From a virus, in the UHGV virus genome UHGV-0159119: DNA of 18,360 nt; one strand, 5' to 3'. The first letter of the stretch is position 1; every line of letters starts with the position of its first letter. Both the position numbers and the translations under genes were made by a program. Positions 2,459 through 18,360 of this stretch are shown piece after piece. The notes under the pieces were generated by a model. It did no database searches, had not been told where the DNA came from, and saw nothing but the letters and a program-made list of their open reading frames with translations.

Positions 2459-3166
2459 CTATGCCGCCTGTTTTAGTTCGTTAACTCTGATGTTCATTAC
2501 CTGAACGCATTTAGCCTGCGCCTCCTCGTTGCCAGCCATTAATTGCCAGTCACGCTGATAACGCTCGATGAGTTTTTTCTTGTCAGTTTCTGTTGACGCA
2601 TAATCGCTGAAGTCTTTCAGGATTTGTTCGCAGTCAACCGATGGAGATTTCTGGTTGGTATTTTCTGGTGATGGTTTGTTATCTGATGCTGGGATTGCCC
2701 ATCCCGGCAGCGATGGAGGGGACCAGTAAAATCCTGTTCCATCCTTCAGTTTTGCCCTGTGCCACCCCTGCTTTTTATCGAGAGATGTTTGTGCGAAACC
2801 TTCCTCAAGGTTATACAGATACCGACCGATTCCCCACTGAACGGCAGCACGCTTCATTGCACCGGAACGACCACCTTTGACGGCTTCTACCTGCGTGTTT
2901 TCAGCAGCATCCCATTTGGTTACCCATTCGGAATCAATCTTGATTGATATGCCGCATTCAACTCCGCCGTTGTTGGGAATATCGCGGTATTCATTGCGCC
3001 ATCCTGCTTTGCCGCAAACATCGTCCAGGCGTTTCATGATTGCCCGGTTCGTGACATAAGCCAGCACCATAGCCCACACCTTGCCATCGCGTGTTTTACC
3101 GCTTTGCTGTATTCGCCATTCGATATCTTCAGGGCTGAATGGCTCATCGAATTTGTTCAAATCCAT
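2459..3166 (-). CDS. Phage single-strand annealing recombinase (Rad52/Sak-type core; C-terminal tail resembles P22 Erf)
   Basis: 235 aa with GISIKIDSEW..KGGRSGAMKRAAVQWGIGRYLYN core. C-terminal TETDKKKLIERYQRDWQ..KCVQVMNIRVNELKQ matches my recollection of the Erf tail. GAGGTG RBS. Confidence 0.8.
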   Translation of the reverse strand: MDLNKFDEPFSPEDIEWRIQQSGKTRDGKVWAMVLAYVTNRAIMKRLDDVCGKAGWRNEYRDIPNNGGVECGISIKIDSEWVTKWDAAENTQVEAVKGGRSGAMKRAAVQWGIGRYLYNLEEGFAQTSLDKKQGWHRAKLKDGTGFYWSPPSLPGWAIPASDNKPSPENTNQKSPSVDCEQILKDFSDYASTETDKKKLIERYQRDWQLMAGNEEAQAKCVQVMNIRVNELKQAA

Positions 3167-3174
3167 AATTCACC

Positions 3175-3345
3175 TCAGAATGGACACGGCCCAAGGAAAT
3201 AACGCTGATTTAATACTTCGACTCGGGACAAATTAAGGCATACCCGCATTCCTTCGCGGTCACCATTATGGCGATACCAGAGAGCTTTCTGCGTGTACAT
3301 GCGTCTCTGTAACTTGCTCTCCTTCACTGTGGTTGCAAGTGACAT
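3175..3345 (-). CDS. Small hypothetical protein (56 aa) in the gam/abc slot
   Basis: Below the track threshold. ATG at 3345 with AAGGAG 7 nt upstream. Overlaps the next ORF by 80 nt in another frame. Confidence 0.3.
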   Translation of the reverse strand: MSLATTVKESKLQRRMYTQKALWYRHNGDREGMRVCLNLSRVEVLNQRYFLGPCPF

Positions 3346-3424
3346 GAATATCTCCTTCGTTACCGATTAATTCTTTCATCTGACGAATGAATTCTTCGTC
3401 TGACCAGTTATCTGTAAAACTCAT
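3266..3424 (-). CDS. Small hypothetical protein (52 aa) in the gam/abc slot
   Basis: ATG at 3424 overlaps the kil stop as ATGA (translational coupling). Translation MSFTDNWSDEEFIRQMKELIG... Confidence 0.3.
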   Translation of the reverse strand: MSFTDNWSDEEFIRQMKELIGNEGDIHVTCNHSEGEQVTETHVHAESSLVSP

Positions 3425-3573
3425 TTCCTGCGATACCACGGAAGGTTGATAGCTGATTTCATCGCTTTATTTGCTTCAAGCCACATTTTTGAATCACCAA
3501 TAAATCTGGCTATTACTGCTTTGTTCTGTGCAGCACGAAGCATCTGGTGATTGATGGCTATTTCATTGCGCAT
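3421..3573 (-). CDS. kil: Kil-like host cell-division inhibitor
   Basis: 50 aa, MRNEIAINHQMLRAAQNKAVIARFIGDSKMW..., resembling lambda Kil (IATFIGDEKMF) as I recall it. Lies directly downstream of cIII as in lambda. GAGG RBS. Confidence 0.55.
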   Translation of the reverse strand: MRNEIAINHQMLRAAQNKAVIARFIGDSKMWLEANKAMKSAINLPWYRRK

Positions 3574-3689
3574 AATAAGACCTCAACTCTTTTCCATCCG
3601 TCACGTAATTTACGGGTGATTCGTTCAAGTAAAGATTCATTTAGTTGGAAGGCACCCATGCGAGCGCCTCCCGCGATTGCGTAAATCAT
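3558..3689 (-). CDS. cIII: CIII (FtsH inhibitor that stabilises CII)
   Basis: 43 aa, MIYAIAGGARMGAFQLNESLLERITRKLRDGWKR..., containing the conserved lambda CIII core ESLLERITRKLRDGWKR. AAGGAA RBS. Confidence 0.75.
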   Translation of the reverse strand: MIYAIAGGARMGAFQLNESLLERITRKLRDGWKRVEVLLCAMK

Positions 3690-13657: not shown

Positions 13658-13842
13658 ACGCCACAATTCAAACGATACCAGAGCTTCTTATCCAGACACG
13701 AGACAATCAGACCGAAGTGGCGAGGATGCTTTCCTGCGCAAGAGGAACAGTGCTCAAGTACAACCGAGACAGCAAAGGTGAGCGTCACGTAATAGTTAAC
13801 GGCGTCCTGATGGTCAAACAGGGCAAGAGGGGAAGACGATGA
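13654..13842 (+). CDS. ninH: NinH
   Basis: 62 aa. NQTEVARMLSCARGTVLKY matches lambda NinH (NQTEVARRLKCSRGTVRKY). Confidence 0.65.
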   Translation: MNATIQTIPELLIQTRDNQTEVARMLSCARGTVLKYNRDSKGERHVIVNGVLMVKQGKRGRR

Positions 13843-14462
13843 GACTCGAAAGCGTAGCTAAATTTCATTCGCCAAAAAGCCCAATGATGAGCGACTCACC
13901 ACGGGCTACGGCTTCTGACTCTCTTTCCGGTACTGATGTGATGGCTGCTATGGGGATGGCGCAATCACAAGCCGGATTCGGTATGGCTGCATTCTGCGGT
14001 AAGCACGAACTCAGCCAGAACGACAAACAAAAGGCTATCAACTATCTGATGCAATTTGCACACAAGGTATCGGGGAAATACCGTGGTGTGGCAAAGCTTG
14101 AAGGAAATACTAAGGCAAAGGTACTGCAAGTGCTCGCAACATTCGCTTATGCGGATTATTGCCGTAGTGCCGCGACGCCGGGCGCAAGATGCAGAGATTG
14201 CCACGGTACAGGTCGTGCGGTTGATATAGCAAAAACAGAGCAGTGGGGGAGAGTTGTTGAGAAAGAGTGCGGAAGATGCAAAGGCGTCGGCTATTCCAGG
14301 ATGCCAGCAAGCGCCGCATATCGCGCTGTAACGATGCTAATCCCAAACCTTACCCAACCCACCTGGTCACGCACTGTTAAGCCGCTGTATGACGCTCTGG
14401 TGGTGCAATGCCACAAGGAAGAGTCAATCGCAGACAACATTTTGAATGCGGTCACACGTTAG
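13839..14462 (+). CDS. Q: Q late-gene antiterminator
   Basis: 207 aa, essentially lambda Q (MRLESVAKFHSPKSPMMSDSPRATASD...), including the CxxC zinc-binding segment. Confidence 0.9.
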   Translation: MRLESVAKFHSPKSPMMSDSPRATASDSLSGTDVMAAMGMAQSQAGFGMAAFCGKHELSQNDKQKAINYLMQFAHKVSGKYRGVAKLEGNTKAKVLQVLATFAYADYCRSAATPGARCRDCHGTGRAVDIAKTEQWGRVVEKECGRCKGVGYSRMPASAAYRAVTMLIPNLTQPTWSRTVKPLYDALVVQCHKEESIADNILNAVTR

Positions 14463-14504
14463 CAGCATGATTTCCACGGATGGCAACATATTAACGGCAT
14501 GATA

Positions 14505-14533
14505 TTGACTTTTTGAATAAACTTGGGTAAATT
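14505..14533 (+). promoter_or_regulatory. pR' late promoter (with the qut region)
   Basis: TTGACT, 17 nt spacer, TAAATT, as in lambda pR', directly downstream of Q. Confidence 0.7.
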
Positions 14534-14540
14534 TGACCCA

Positions 14541-14733
14541 ACGATGGGTTAATTCGCTCGTTGTGGTAGTGAGATGAAAAGAGGCGGCGCTTACTACCGA
14601 TTCCGCCTAGTTGGTCACTTCGACGTATCGTCTGGAACTCCAACCATCGCAGGCTGAGAGGTCTGTAAAATGCAATCCCGAAACAGTTCGCAGGCAATAG
14701 TTAGAGCCTGCATAACGGTTTCGGGATTTTTTA
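14541..14733 (+). ncRNA. 6S-type short late transcript from pR' to tR'
   Basis: About 190 nt from the predicted start to the tR' hairpin, matching the lambda arrangement. The 5' end is approximate. Confidence 0.5.
14674..14733 (+). terminator. tR' intrinsic terminator
   Basis: Long hairpin AATCCCGAAAC...GTTTCGGGATT followed by TTTTTTAT. Confidence 0.7.
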
Positions 14734-15130
14734 TATCTGTGTAACAGGTAAGAGCATTCTCCCTTATGGAGCTTGTCTTAAATGCACCGAGTGCTCTTTC
14801 CGTTGTGCTGAATTAAGCGAATGCCGGAAGCAGAACCGGATCACCAAATGCGTACAGGCGTCATCGCCGCCCAGCAACAGCACAACCCAAACTGAGCCGT
14901 AGCCACTGGCTATCCTGAATTCATCAGTGATAGTTACGCTGCGGCCTTCTACACATGACCTTCGTGAAAGCGGGTGGCAAGAGGCTGCGCTAACAACCTC
15001 ATGCCGCTTTGCCCGTGCATATCGGTCACGAACAAATCTGATTACTAAACACAGTAGCCTGGATTTGTTCTATCAGTAATCGACCTTATTCCTAATTAAA
15101 TAGAGCAAATCCCCTTATTGGGGGTAAGAC

Positions 15131-15454
15131 ATGAAGATGCCAGAAAAACATGACCTGTTAGCCGCCATTCTCGCGGCAAAGGAACAAGGCATCGGGGCAA
15201 TCCTTGCGTTTGCAATGGCGTACCTTCGCGGCAGATATAATGGCGGTGCGTTTACAAAAACAGTAATCGACGCAACGATGTGCGCCATTATCGCCTGGTT
15301 CATTCGTGACCTTCTCGACTTCGCCGGACTAAGTAGCAATCTCGCTTATATAACGAGCGTGTTCATCGGCTACATCGGTACTGACTCGATTGGTTCGCTT
15401 ATCAAACGCTTCGCTGCTAAAAAAGCCGGAGTAGAAGATGGTGGAAATCAATAA
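15131..15454 (+). CDS. S: Holin S (dual start S107/S105)
   Basis: [34 protein letters not shown]... is essentially lambda S. Confidence 0.9.
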
Positions 15455-15914
15455 TCAACGTAAGGCGTTCCTCGATATGCTGGCGTGGTCAGAGGGAACT
15501 GATAACGGACGACAGAAAACCAGAAATCATGGTTATGACGTCATTGTAGGAGGAGAGCTATTCACTGATTACTCCGATCACCCTCGCAAACTTGTCACGC
15601 TAAACCCAAAACTCAAATCAACAGCCGCCGGGCGTTACCAGCTTCTTTCCCGTTGGTGGGATGCCTATTGTAAGCAGCTTGGCCTGAAAGACTTCTCTCC
15701 GAAAAGCCAGGACGCTGTGGCACTGCAACAGATTAAAGAACGTGGCGCTTTACCGATGATTGATCGCGGTGATATTCGTCAGGCAATTGACCGTTGCAGC
15801 AATATCTGGGCTTCACTTCCGGGCGCTGGTTATGGTCAGTTCGAGCATAAGGCTGATAGCCTGATTGCAAAATTCAAAGAAGCGGGCGGAACGGTCAGAG
15901 AGATTGAGGTATGA
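15438..15914 (+). CDS. R: Endolysin R (lytic transglycosylase)
   Basis: 158 aa, essentially lambda R ([24 protein letters not shown]...). Confidence 0.9.
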
Positions 15915-16375
15915 GCAGAGTCACCGCGATTATCTCCGCTCTGGTTATCTGCATCATCGTCTGCCTGTCATGGGCTGTTAATCATTACCGTGATAACGCC
16001 ATGACCTACAAAGAGCAGCGCGATAAAAAAGTCAGTGAGCTGAAGCAGGCGACCGCCACCATTACTGACATGCAGCAGCGCCAGCGTTCTGCTGATGCAC
16101 TCGATGCTAAATACACGAAGGAATTGTCCGATGCGAAAAAGACCATTAACGATTTGCGTCGTGATGTCGATTCTGGCGCTAAACGGCTGCGCATCGCCGC
16201 AACCTGCCCTGGAGTGCCAAAAGCCACCTCCTCCACCGGCGTGGATGATGCAGGAGCCCCCGAACTTACTCCAGACGCTCGACGGAATTATTTCGATCAC
16301 CGGGACGGAATCGCAACCGCTGACAAGATGATTCGCGGCATGCAGGACTACATCAAAGAGCAGTGTCTTAAGTGA
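15911..16375 (+). CDS. Rz: Rz inner-membrane spanin
   Basis: N-terminus [30 protein letters not shown] matches lambda Rz. Confidence 0.85.
16131..16331 (+). CDS. Rz1: Rz1 outer-membrane lipoprotein spanin, embedded in Rz in the +1 frame
   Basis: Lipobox LALNGC and proline-rich [22 protein letters not shown]. Start is an internal ATG of track ORF 16095..16331. Confidence 0.75.
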
Positions 16376-16394
16376 TTCGTCACCCAAATAACAG

Positions 16395-16422
16395 AGCCTG
16401 ACTTCGGTCGGGCTTTTTTATT
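16395..16422 (+). terminator. Intrinsic terminator after the lysis cassette
   Basis: AGCCUGAC-UUCG-GUCGGGCU (one G-U wobble, UUCG loop) followed by UUUUUUAUU. Confidence 0.7.
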
Positions 16423-16446
16423 CCCAGAAGAAGCAGGAGAAGAAGC

Positions 16447-16647
16447 ATGTTAACAGTAAAAGTAATGTCGCCAGGTGGCGGTGAAGAGATTCATTGCGGG
16501 TTGAGTGTAGGGTTCAATCCGGGGCAGCAGAGCATCGCGGTATCGGGAATGGACAAAAATGTATTCCTGAAACCTGGCGAGGTCGCCTACGTGATGAACC
16601 AGAACGGGAAGACGGTATCTCGTTACGAGCATAATGACCGCCAGTAG
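16447..16647 (+). CDS. Small hypothetical protein (66 aa), first gene of a post-lysis cargo module
   Basis: Own strong RBS (AGGAG 7 nt upstream of ATG), immediately after the terminator. Glycine-rich; not lambda bor, which is on the opposite strand. Confidence 0.6.
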   Translation: MLTVKVMSPGGGEEIHCGLSVGFNPGQQSIAVSGMDKNVFLKPGEVAYVMNQNGKTVSRYEHNDRQ

Positions 16648-16731
16648 CCATTCCAAAGCTCACCTGCTGGTGGGCTTGATAATGGATATCCGCCTGAGCG
16701 GATAAATCAAAAATAACCCCTGCAACGGATA

Positions 16732-17118
16732 ATGACGGAGCAGCAGATGACAAAGGCCAAATGGCACAGACTTCCGGCATTCACCATTCCGCTGTTTCAA
16801 AGTGCGCACGTCTACCTTGCCATAACCAGAGAGCAGTATCAGAACGCGGATAAGTTCCTTGGCGGCAGTGGAGAGGAAAGGCCGTTTAACACTGGTCTGG
16901 CAAGTAACTATGAAAACACCGATACAGGAGAGCGAGTCTACCTAATTGGGGTATTCGACCAGCAGATTTCTACGCTTGTTCACGAGTGCGCTCACGTCAG
17001 CTTTTACGTTTGCTCTGATGTAGGCGTGACAACTAAGCCAGAGGATGCCAATGAAACTTACTGTTACCTTCTGGACAGAATGTTTAGCGCATTCCTGCCA
17101 CATATCAAACAGGATTAA
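16732..17118 (+). CDS. Hypothetical protein with an HExxH zincin-like motif (start at ATG 16732 or, more likely, ATG 16747)
   Basis: LVHECAHVSF is a candidate metallopeptidase motif, with downstream Glu and Asp residues. GGAG lies 7 nt before ATG 16747. Confidence 0.6.
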   Translation: MTEQQMTKAKWHRLPAFTIPLFQSAHVYLAITREQYQNADKFLGGSGEERPFNTGLASNYENTDTGERVYLIGVFDQQISTLVHECAHVSFYVCSDVGVTTKPEDANETYCYLLDRMFSAFLPHIKQD

Positions 17119-17121
17119 CCC

Positions 17122-17772
17122 ATGGCAAAACCGGACTGGGAGGCTATCGAATCGGCTTACCGGGCTGGAGTGCTATCGGTAAGGGAGTTAGCCGGAAAAT
17201 ATGGCATCTCTCACCAGGCCATCAGCAAGAGAGCCAAAAAGGATGGATGGGAGCGAGATCTAAAAGCCAAAGTCCAGGCAAAGGCAGATGCGCTGGTTGC
17301 CAAACGTGAGGTTGCCAGGCAGGTTGCCACCGAAAGCACTATTTCAGAGCGGCAACTAATCGAGGCGACCGCTGAGGTGATTGCCACGGTACGCATGGAG
17401 CACCGGGGAGACATCCGCAGGGCTCGTGAACTGACAAACATGCTATTCGATGAGCTGGCCGGGGAGTGTGGCGATGTGGCCGCTCTTGAGATGCTCGGCG
17501 ACCTGATGCGCCGTGAGGATGACAAAGGGCAGGATAAACTCAACGATCTGTACCACAAAATAATCAGCCTGCCTTCCCGCGTTAAATCCATGAAAGACCT
17601 GAGCGACAGCCTGAAGACGCTGATCGGCCTCGAACGTGAGGCGTACAGCATCGAGAATAAAGCTGAAACGAAAGAGGTTACGCATAACGTCATGCTGGTG
17701 CCAACCAGTGACAGCGTGGACGACTGGGAAGCGGCAGCGCAGAAACAACAGGGCGGGGTGCTCGGTGGATGA
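17122..17772 (+). CDS. Terminase small subunit (HTH-containing)
   Basis: 216 aa with N-terminal HTH-like VRELAGKYGISHQAISKRAKKDGW. ATGA-coupled to the downstream large subunit. Confidence 0.7.
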   Translation: MAKPDWEAIESAYRAGVLSVRELAGKYGISHQAISKRAKKDGWERDLKAKVQAKADALVAKREVARQVATESTISERQLIEATAEVIATVRMEHRGDIRRARELTNMLFDELAGECGDVAALEMLGDLMRREDDKGQDKLNDLYHKIISLPSRVKSMKDLSDSLKTLIGLEREAYSIENKAETKEVTHNVMLVPTSDSVDDWEAAAQKQQGGVLGG

Positions 17773-18360
17773 ATTACAAAGCTGTATGGAAGCCACTGCC
17801 TGGATCTCAGTCTCTGGCGCTGAGCTGCCCGTGTAACGAAATCCTGTTCGAGGGTACTCGTGGTCCGGGCAAGACCGCTGCGCAGTTAGCCAGGTTCCGG
17901 CGCAATGTCGGCGTGGGCTATGGTTCGTTCTGGCGCGGCGTCATCTTCGACACCGAATATAAGAACCTTGCCGACATCATCACTCAGTCGAAGCGTATGT
18001 TTCGCCTGTTCAACGACGGTGCGCGCTATCTGTCATCTGCGAGCGAATTGCGATGGGTATGGCCAACAGGCGAGGAACTGCTCTTCCGATTTGGCAAAGA
18101 GGCGGACGACTACTGGGATTTCCACGGGCAGGAATTCCCGTTCATTGGCTTTAACGAACTGACTAAACAGCAGTCCCCGGAATTCTACGAAATGATGTTC
18201 TCCTGCCGACGTTCATCGTTCAGGCCGGAAAACTACCCGCTGGAGAATGGCAAGTTACTGAGGCCGATCCCGCTGGAGACGTTCAGCACAACCAACCCGT
18301 TTGGTATCGGGCACACCTGGGTGAAGAAACGCTTCATTGAGCCAGCGCCACGCGGAACCG
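17769..18360 (+). CDS. Terminase large subunit, N-terminal part; continues past the window end
   Basis: Frame from ATG 17769 is open to the window edge with Walker A GTRGPGKT. Not in the ORF track because no stop is reached. Not the lambda A type. Confidence 0.8.
   Translation, partial: MNYKAVWKPLPGSQSLALSCPCNEILFEGTRGPGKTAAQLARFRRNVGVGYGSFWRGVIFDTEYKNLADIITQSKRMFRLFNDGARYLSSASELRWVWPTGEELLFRFGKEADDYWDFHGQEFPFIGFNELTKQQSPEFYEMMFSCRRSSFRPENYPLENGKLLRPIPLETFSTTNPFGIGHTWVKKRFIEPAPRGT

Follow-up and report, generated by a model that had tools for sequence, protein, structure and literature searches.

What are the two genes that separate the lysis genes from the terminase genes in UHGV-0159119, a viral DNA of 18,360 nucleotides (nt) hereafter called the window? 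These genes, abbreviated as ORF1 and ORF2, lie on the same strand as their neighbours, after the terminator of the spanin gene Rz and before the two terminase genes (table 1), and both products are already catalogued as hypothetical proteins. A previous reading of this DNA made from its letters alone, hereafter the sequence-only reading, took them for a two-gene cargo module of non-lambda origin at the junction of lysis and packaging, with a possible role in defence and with an HExxH motif in one product. Our analysis leads us to favour, with moderate confidence, a different explanation, namely that the interval consists of two independent single-gene accessory cassettes, in which ORF2 would encode a stand-alone minimal zincin-type peptidase acting on a host protein during the lytic cycle and ORF1 would be unrelated to it. 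Of the earlier interpretation, the conserved zincin signature and the status of the two ORFs as cargo are thus retained, whereas the module, the emphasis on defence and the weight given to a Chi octamer are not.

ORF2 has two possible start codons, ATG at 16747 giving a protein of 123 amino acids (aa) and an in-frame ATG at 16732 giving 128 aa; the former fits the N-termini of the homologues (MAKxKW) and is preceded by GGAG 6 nt upstream. Over its full length (residues 5–127) the protein matches the profile of phrog_1365 (E 8e-35), a family without assigned function and without Pfam model, the members of which include ST64T orf-129, epsilon34 gp70 and hkcC of HK620 and P22 (P22 hkcC matches the same profile with E 3e-39). 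An exhaustive profile search for relatives returned 690 representatives of clusters at 50% identity, and nearly all of the 150 listed have 100–140 aa; a further word-index search for homologues, started from the deep alignment, yielded no more than the close set already known. When 96 of these representatives, with 25–51% identity to ORF2, were aligned, the sole invariant columns were the H, E and H of HExxH and a Glu situated 20 residues past the second His, which is E108 in the 128-aa form and E103 in the 123-aa form. One Gly and one Tyr near the motif are nearly invariant, the Tyr lying four residues after the Glu that is the putative ligand. Because it is invariant across the whole family, the HExxH of ORF2 lies far beyond chance. 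The protein of about 123 aa with HECAH and downstream acidic residues that had been noticed in the sequence is therefore confirmed, together with its zincin-like pattern and the conservation of the motif among homologues.

The closest of the named relatives are the proteins of ST64T and epsilon34, to which ORF2 is 58–60% identical, followed by hkcC with 36% identity; all of them retain the HExxH...NE motif of ORF2. The hkcC gene differs in its place, since it is part of the ant moron, with gene 16 on one side and the tailspike gene on the other, whereas ORF2 lies at the lysis-terminase junction. In the genome paper of epsilon34 (PMC2629481) hkcC appears solely as an ant-moron gene to which no function is ascribed, and membership of its family therefore gives ORF2 no function. 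Among the longer relatives no informative domain fusions were found, their extra residues being charged low-complexity tails or the product of probably mis-called starts. (Gene 49 of mEp021, at 3001–3585 of locus L176, L numbers designating the loci that were fetched, is annotated as a 194-aa relative; its first ~120 residues match the family and the C-terminal 75 have no Pfam match. In the P22 record BK000583, a third-party annotation, the hkcC coding sequence is missing although its ORF is intact [13861–14217; L004 2501–2860], and the annotated sieA promoter overlaps the hkcC start on the opposite strand.)

The AlphaFold model of ORF2 (pLDDT 83.3, pTM 0.79) shows the order strand, strand, helix, strand, strand, then a helix of residues 79–96 carrying HExxH and finally a helix of residues 108–125, which starts with the invariant E108 (128-aa numbering). 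Strand 68–74 precedes the HExxH helix, the block of which has pLDDT 94–96. This predicted topology is consistent with the minimal zincin core defined by Iyer and colleagues (PMC5512222), in which a beta sheet is combined with two C-terminal helices, the first containing HExxH and the second Glu. The same order of core elements is present in the metallopeptidase (MPTase) domains of phage and plasmid polyvalent proteins and in the C-terminal domain of ArdC (PMC5512222). Weak matches of ORF2 lead to this group, one to a region of the N4 virion RNA polymerase and the other to a protein named PolyVal metallopeptidase in the BFVD collection of viral models. Unlike the MPTases of polyvalent proteins, the ORF2 family is stand-alone (~115–140 aa) and never fused to other domains, and there is no significant sequence match between the two.

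The weak sequence links of the ORF2 family all lead to zincins: SprT-like matches were obtained with 14 of the 96 relatives (best E 1e-4), and in the PDB the links are to myroilysin, peptidyl-Lys metalloendopeptidase and the N4-type virion RNA polymerase. Foldseek comparison with the BFVD models produced 30 clusters at E<=1e-3, coming from phages of Pseudomonas, Ralstonia, Achromobacter, Acinetobacter and Erwinia as well as from crAss-like phages, and the few clusters that have names are labelled SprT-like, PolyVal metallopeptidase, IrrE or metalloprotease. We place ORF2 in an orphan family of the zincin-like superfamily, for which zinc binding and catalysis are predicted from the sequence and the structural model.

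In the mechanism that we propose, transcription of ORF1 and ORF2 would start at pR' and, owing to the modification of RNA polymerase by Q, continue past the terminator that follows Rz. The product of ORF2 would be a cytoplasmic minimal metallopeptidase of zincin type, as the candidate enzyme of the hkcC/phrog_1365 family, in which a zinc ion would be bound by three ligands, the two motif His and the invariant Glu, water would be activated by the Glu of HExxH, and the near-invariant Tyr may stabilise the transition state. It would cut one specific protein during lytic growth. A host protein, cut for the sake of takeover or counter-defence, is the more likely substrate than a phage assembly protein, given that members of the family are found in phages whose virion and packaging modules are unrelated, and that in N4-like phages they lie in what appears to be an early region.

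The timing assumed in this mechanism is suggested by several observations. In a consensus scan of the + strand between 15800 and 17400, no site resembling a sigma-70 promoter was found and no terminator was seen after ORF2, both of which a moron in the strict sense would have for its expression from the prophage; in P22 and HK620, hkcC points the same way as the late genes 16 and 9. Three kinds of strictly lytic phages have relatives in which the motif is intact, and a function tied to lysogeny is therefore unlikely. These are a jumbo Achromobacter phage, a T7-like Ralstonia phage, in which the relative comes right after the spanin gene and ends the late transcript, and an N4-like Klebsiella phage, in which it lies with other small genes ahead of RNA polymerase 1 subunit A, in a segment that we infer to be the early region. 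Searches of ORF1 and ORF2 against the models of Pfam, NCBIfam and PADLOC gave none above threshold, and with the defence-protein models of PADLOC no family was obtained even at E<=1. A defence role expressed from the prophage is unlikely in view of the lack of a promoter-like site on the + strand and of PADLOC matches, the position in a late operon and the strictly lytic relatives. In the Pfam, PHROG and NCBIfam searches, no characterised virion or packaging protein was matched by either product, and on this point the sequence-only reading is supported.

The hkcC/phrog_1365 family is present in model phages such as P22, HK620, L and ST64T and has neither a Pfam model nor a solved structure, and the recognition of its invariant site of gluzincin type means that what was a hypothetical protein can now be tested directly as an enzyme in very tractable genetic systems. 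If ORF2 cuts a defence or housekeeping protein of the host, it would add a class of protease to the counter-defence repertoire of phages.

Several points weigh against our explanation. ORF2 reaches the threshold of no curated family in Pfam or NCBIfam, and biochemical or genetic data were not found in the literature for any member of the hkcC/phrog_1365 family (the literature searched on hkcC, PHROG numbers, SprT-like anti-defence, PF18894, DUF2560 and DUF2280, T5 small proteins and lambdoid boundary sequences contained no functional data). The promoter scan is a crude consensus test, with which expression in the lysogen is compatible, and the host-directed target is a matter of inference only. 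Finally, in all 80 enterobacterial loci the ORF2 relative is placed between lysis and terminase genes, often 6–9 nt from the next gene, and such a constant placement could reflect a role linked to packaging or lysis instead.

The first of these roles would make ORF2 an accessory protease of packaging or assembly that processes a terminase, portal or ejection protein. To evaluate it we considered the set of 80 fetched viral contigs that each encode an ORF2 relative (L008–L087; in a separate count, 80 phage records, mostly P22-like, have relatives). The gene is always upstream of the terminase genes and on the same strand, with a recognised terminase downstream in 67 of the 80 loci and the reverse order in none; the short distance to the next start is in keeping with a packaging role, as is the fact that zincin domains process packaged proteins in other phages (PMC5512222). 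However, near-identical alleles of ORF2 (>=85% identity) directly precede four different downstream modules, namely the small terminase of this window, a 329-aa Terminase_2 protein, PF18894 with DUF2280, and ST64T orf-134 with gp3, which means that at least four unrelated types of small terminase can follow the same gene. Moreover, HK639 has the same terminase type (85.7%) with neither ORF1 nor ORF2, hkcC of P22 and HK620 lies far from the terminase, and the N4-like relatives are in a presumed early region. We thus regard the packaging role as unlikely.

Some features of these neighbourhoods deserve mention in their own right. The most common neighbour of ORF2 relatives is a DUF2560 gene (ST64T orf-118, phrog_571), which is absent from this window; it is present in 38 of the 80 loci and directly adjoins the relative in 36 of them, in 24 upstream and in 12 downstream (see also L005 2641–2997). 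A PF18894 gene, likewise absent from this window, begins no more than 7 nt after the ORF2 relative in 20 of the 80 loci and is itself succeeded by DUF2280 (see also L001 6747–7385). PF18894, which carries a transposase label in PHROGs, is a second, unrelated HExxH protein, and these 20 loci consequently have two zincin-like genes in tandem before the terminase.

The comparison with defined enzyme families bears on another possibility, that the HExxH...E site of ORF2 is not proteolytic and belongs to a metal-dependent enzyme of other kind or to a purely structural zinc site. The SprT-like, Spartan and Wss1 proteins (PF10263) have an edge strand followed by the HExxH helix, as ORF2 does, and some databases and automated pipelines label relatives of ORF2 as SprT-like; membership of this family was rejected, since ORF2 scores 12.1 bits versus the Pfam gathering threshold of 25.6 and hhalign gives a probability of 5.9% with E. 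coli SprT. PF18894 (PhageMetallopep) is also a small phage HExxH protein found at the same junction, but it has no Pfam match with ORF2 and is unrelated to it beyond the motif helix (hhalign probability 1.6%). ORF2 is not demonstrably a SprT, a PhageMetallopep or a known defence protein. The spacing and context of its HExxH...NE motif are those of thermolysin-type gluzincins. Compared with the latter enzymes ORF2 is about one third in size, lacks their C-terminal domain and has structural scores below significance; indeed, its model has no convincing structural match among solved peptidases, and this speaks for a non-proteolytic site. The same can be said of a match to the aKG-HExxH peptide hydroxylase domain, which was itself rejected because it has 17.7 bits with a cut-off of 40. 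On the other side, the spacing of the motif and its placement on the helices are of the gluzincin type, as established for thermolysin-type sites, and all weak links in sequence and structure are with peptidases, so that a non-proteolytic site seems to us quite improbable, and a peptidase remains the preferred assignment.

A third possibility, which we consider decidedly improbable, is that ORF2 acts as a factor of the lysis phase tied to the spanin cassette, for example by cutting an envelope-linked or stress-response protein. In lambdoid and P22-like phages the gene immediately follows those of Rz type, and the position after the spanin gene in the T7-like Ralstonia phage is similar. Yet the ORF2 sequence has neither a signal peptide nor a membrane segment, hkcC and the N4-like copies are not beside lysis genes, and lambda and many of its relatives lyse their host without ORF2.

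Are ORF1 and ORF2 then a pair, as the sequence-only reading proposed? Their joint action in a defence, anti-defence or toxin-antidote module would fit the fact that they are adjacent on the same strand, 100 nt apart, and that the pair recurs at 90.8% identity in 10 complete E. coli genomes and in a few IMG/VR loci. However, ORF1 is present in only 7 of the 80 ORF2 loci, and ORF2 in 9 of the 80 ORF1 loci (80 fetched viral contigs, each encoding an ORF1 relative), each gene being widespread alone, ORF1 in T5-like phages and ORF2 in P22-like, N4-like and T7-like phages. The upstream partner of ORF2 varies between Rha, DUF2560 and none, the hairpin of a cassette boundary lies between the two genes (see below), and PADLOC has no match to either. 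E. coli ET729 (L003) has ORF2 without ORF1 and with a Rha gene upstream instead, E. coli MS 115-1 (L002) has ORF1 without ORF2, and in the ant moron of P22 and HK620 the same family is found as hkcC. Given this low co-occurrence, the separate occurrence and the variety of modules, ORF1 and ORF2 are each a mosaic unit of their own and do not form a conserved two-gene operon; a joint module is accordingly very improbable. Of note, the MS 115-1 prophage matches the window at 16376–16792 with 99% identity through ORF1 and the hairpin up to nucleotide 46 of ORF2 and then diverges; this start of ORF2 looks like a relic left when the downstream segment was replaced.

Least probable of all is that ORF2 is a regulatory protease of the ImmA/IrrE kind that cleaves a repressor or an antirepressor regulator, as its HExxH...E pattern, the location of P22 hkcC in the immI region and one BFVD match named IrrE might suggest, for that match has a TM-score of only 0.35, ORF2 sits in a late operon, Peptidase_M78 has no match in ORF2 or its 96 relatives, and no repressor gene lies beside ORF2 in the window or among the genes recognised with the reference set in the 80 loci, which are lysis, terminase, DUF2560, Rha and PF18894 genes.

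With regard to ORF1, the sequence-only reading rightly described it as a glycine-rich protein of 66 aa (9 Gly) with a ribosome binding site of its own. It matches phrog_3909 in its full length (E 8.1e-37, residues 1–63), another family without assigned function, and is conserved with 65–94% identity from E. coli prophages to T5-like phages, its relatives being present in 252 phage records that are mostly of T5-like virulent phages. The structural model has pLDDT 94.3 and six beta strands, and in a profile search of the PDB the sole match was a segment of the FHA domain of aprataxin with E 0.9. Because of its tight conservation in both virulent and temperate phages, ORF1 probably binds a conserved component of the host. 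In T5_ev219, the T5-like genome that was inspected (L006 3001–3195), the ORF1 relative lies in a cluster of tRNA genes just upstream of a grcA-like gene for a glycyl-radical cofactor.

The more unexpected result concerns the segment between the two genes. At 16644–16687 there is a hairpin with an outer stem of 5 bp, a 3x3 internal loop, an inner stem of 9 bp and a 4-nt loop. It has been conserved across 92 phage records, among them HK022, Stx and mEp phages, ECP1 and one Aeromonas phage. Its structure was tested with 35 distinct variants from the fetched loci, chosen by conserved flanking words that leave the covarying columns unconstrained. Across these variants 96.5% of the cells are paired, as against 28–46% in slid controls, and changes on both sides occur in 8 of the 14 pairs (36 cells); none of 500 shuffles matched this pairing and covariation. 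A covariance model built on the alignment of these variants gives the window 67.5 bits on the + strand, compared with 21 bits on the – strand; in the ORF2 loci it has 59 matches, every one of them on the + strand, which are spread over some 50 of the 80 loci, a few of these having two copies. The position of the element varies: it can precede ORF2 by ~60 nt or P22-type gp3 by 16 nt, in ST64T it comes just after gene 15, and in most ORF1 loci it starts exactly at the ORF1 stop codon. By blastn, 1017 of 5426 complete E. coli genomes contain the hairpin, and a single genome can have as many as four copies. No matching family for this intergenic element was found in Rfam, and the prophage Pas sRNAs were rejected as its kin, being unrelated sRNAs of the terminator type.

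Since its G-U pairs lie on the sense strand, a role of the hairpin in RNA is favoured; processing, stability, termination-reinitiation or a recombination junction are possible functions. The element resembles integron attC sites, REP elements and the sequences at phage module boundaries in being orientation-specific, conserved in structure, located at the 3' end of a cassette and endowed with conserved unpaired bases. Unlike integrons, its locus has no integron integrase and its G-U pairs point to RNA, so the likeness is one of logic only. A covarying structure at stop codons and cassette boundaries in roughly one in five E. coli genomes could bear on how cargo genes are exchanged or expressed in mosaic phage genomes. 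One may combine these data in a broader and rather doubtful scheme, in which the lysis-packaging interval of lambdoid and P22-like phages would be an array of single-gene cassettes (ORF1, ORF2, Rha, DUF2560, KilA-N and others) with their 3' ends marked by the hairpin, beginning at the stop codon, the hairpin would be a signal for RNA processing or stability or else a site of cassette exchange, and the hkcC-type mini-zincins would be pan-phage, host-directed proteases for counter-defence or takeover that reach N4-like, T7-like and jumbo phages.

The earlier reading had pointed to two other features between the genes. The 7-bp hairpin at 16687–16704 is indeed present, and its base TTATCC/GGATAA recurs in several phages, but it is less conserved than the element at 16644–16687, which is the conserved structure between the two genes. 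The Chi octamer is also present, as a single copy; it has no excess over chance, given that 79 of 200 shuffles contained at least one Chi. In relatives the corresponding positions differ (GCGGGTGG in HK022, ACTGGTGG in Stx2-1717 and ACGGGTGG in ET729), and many phages carry these forms. A functional Chi site was consequently rejected, the octamer occurring at chance level and not being kept as Chi in related phages.

The features of the locus are collected in table 1. The cargo interval has its upstream edge at the terminator-like hairpin after Rz, and the small terminase gene belongs to the neighbouring module, outside the cargo.

Table 1. Features of the window from the terminator after Rz to the right end (columns: feature, positions, strand, remarks)
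Terminator-like hairpin with T run, after Rz	16393..16416	+	10-bp stem, 4-nt loop, T-rich tail
Shine-Dalgarno AGGAG of ORF1	16435..16439	+	7 nt 5' of ATG 16447
ORF1, 66 aa, small all-beta protein, phrog_3909	16447..16647	+	
Conserved structured hairpin element	16644..16687	+	starts at ORF1 stop codon
Chi octamer GCTGGTGG	16666..16673	+	loop and 3' arm of conserved hairpin
Second hairpin, 7 bp, without T run	16687..16704	+	
ORF2, 123 aa, stand-alone zincin-like protein, hkcC/phrog_1365 family	16747..17118	+	
Codons of H-E-C-A-H, predicted zinc-binding and catalytic motif	16981..16995	+	
Codon of invariant Glu (in NETYCY), predicted third zinc ligand	17053..17055	+	
Small terminase subunit, phrog_1206	17122..17772	+	starts 3 nt past ORF2 stop
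Large terminase subunit, N-terminal part	17769..18360	+	runs off the window

On the lysis side, the window at 13828–16138 is 95.2% identical to lambda Q, S, R and the first half of Rz, which agrees with the lambda likeness noted for these genes. The similarity does not extend to the Rz terminator, as had been thought, but stops around 16138, inside Rz (15911–16375) and ~240 nt before the point that had been named. Another lineage has supplied the C-terminal portion of Rz together with the Rz1-like frame embedded in it, and this constitutes a mosaic joint inside the spanin genes. The region of the Rz terminator (16347–16417, + strand) also has a sub-threshold match in Rfam to isrJ, an Hfq-binding sRNA of Salmonella, with 27.2 bits versus a gathering score of 37.

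On the packaging side, both terminase genes have 85.7% DNA identity to those of HK639. The last 65 residues of the small terminase (17587–17769) are 51% identical to the C-termini of DUF2280 proteins (L001 7417–7905), and this small terminase and the DUF2280 proteins are each followed by the same large terminase (93% identity). The shared C-terminus and the common large terminase thus suggest that a DNA-binding N-terminal part has been swapped on a common TerL-binding tail, and that DUF2280 proteins are small terminases.

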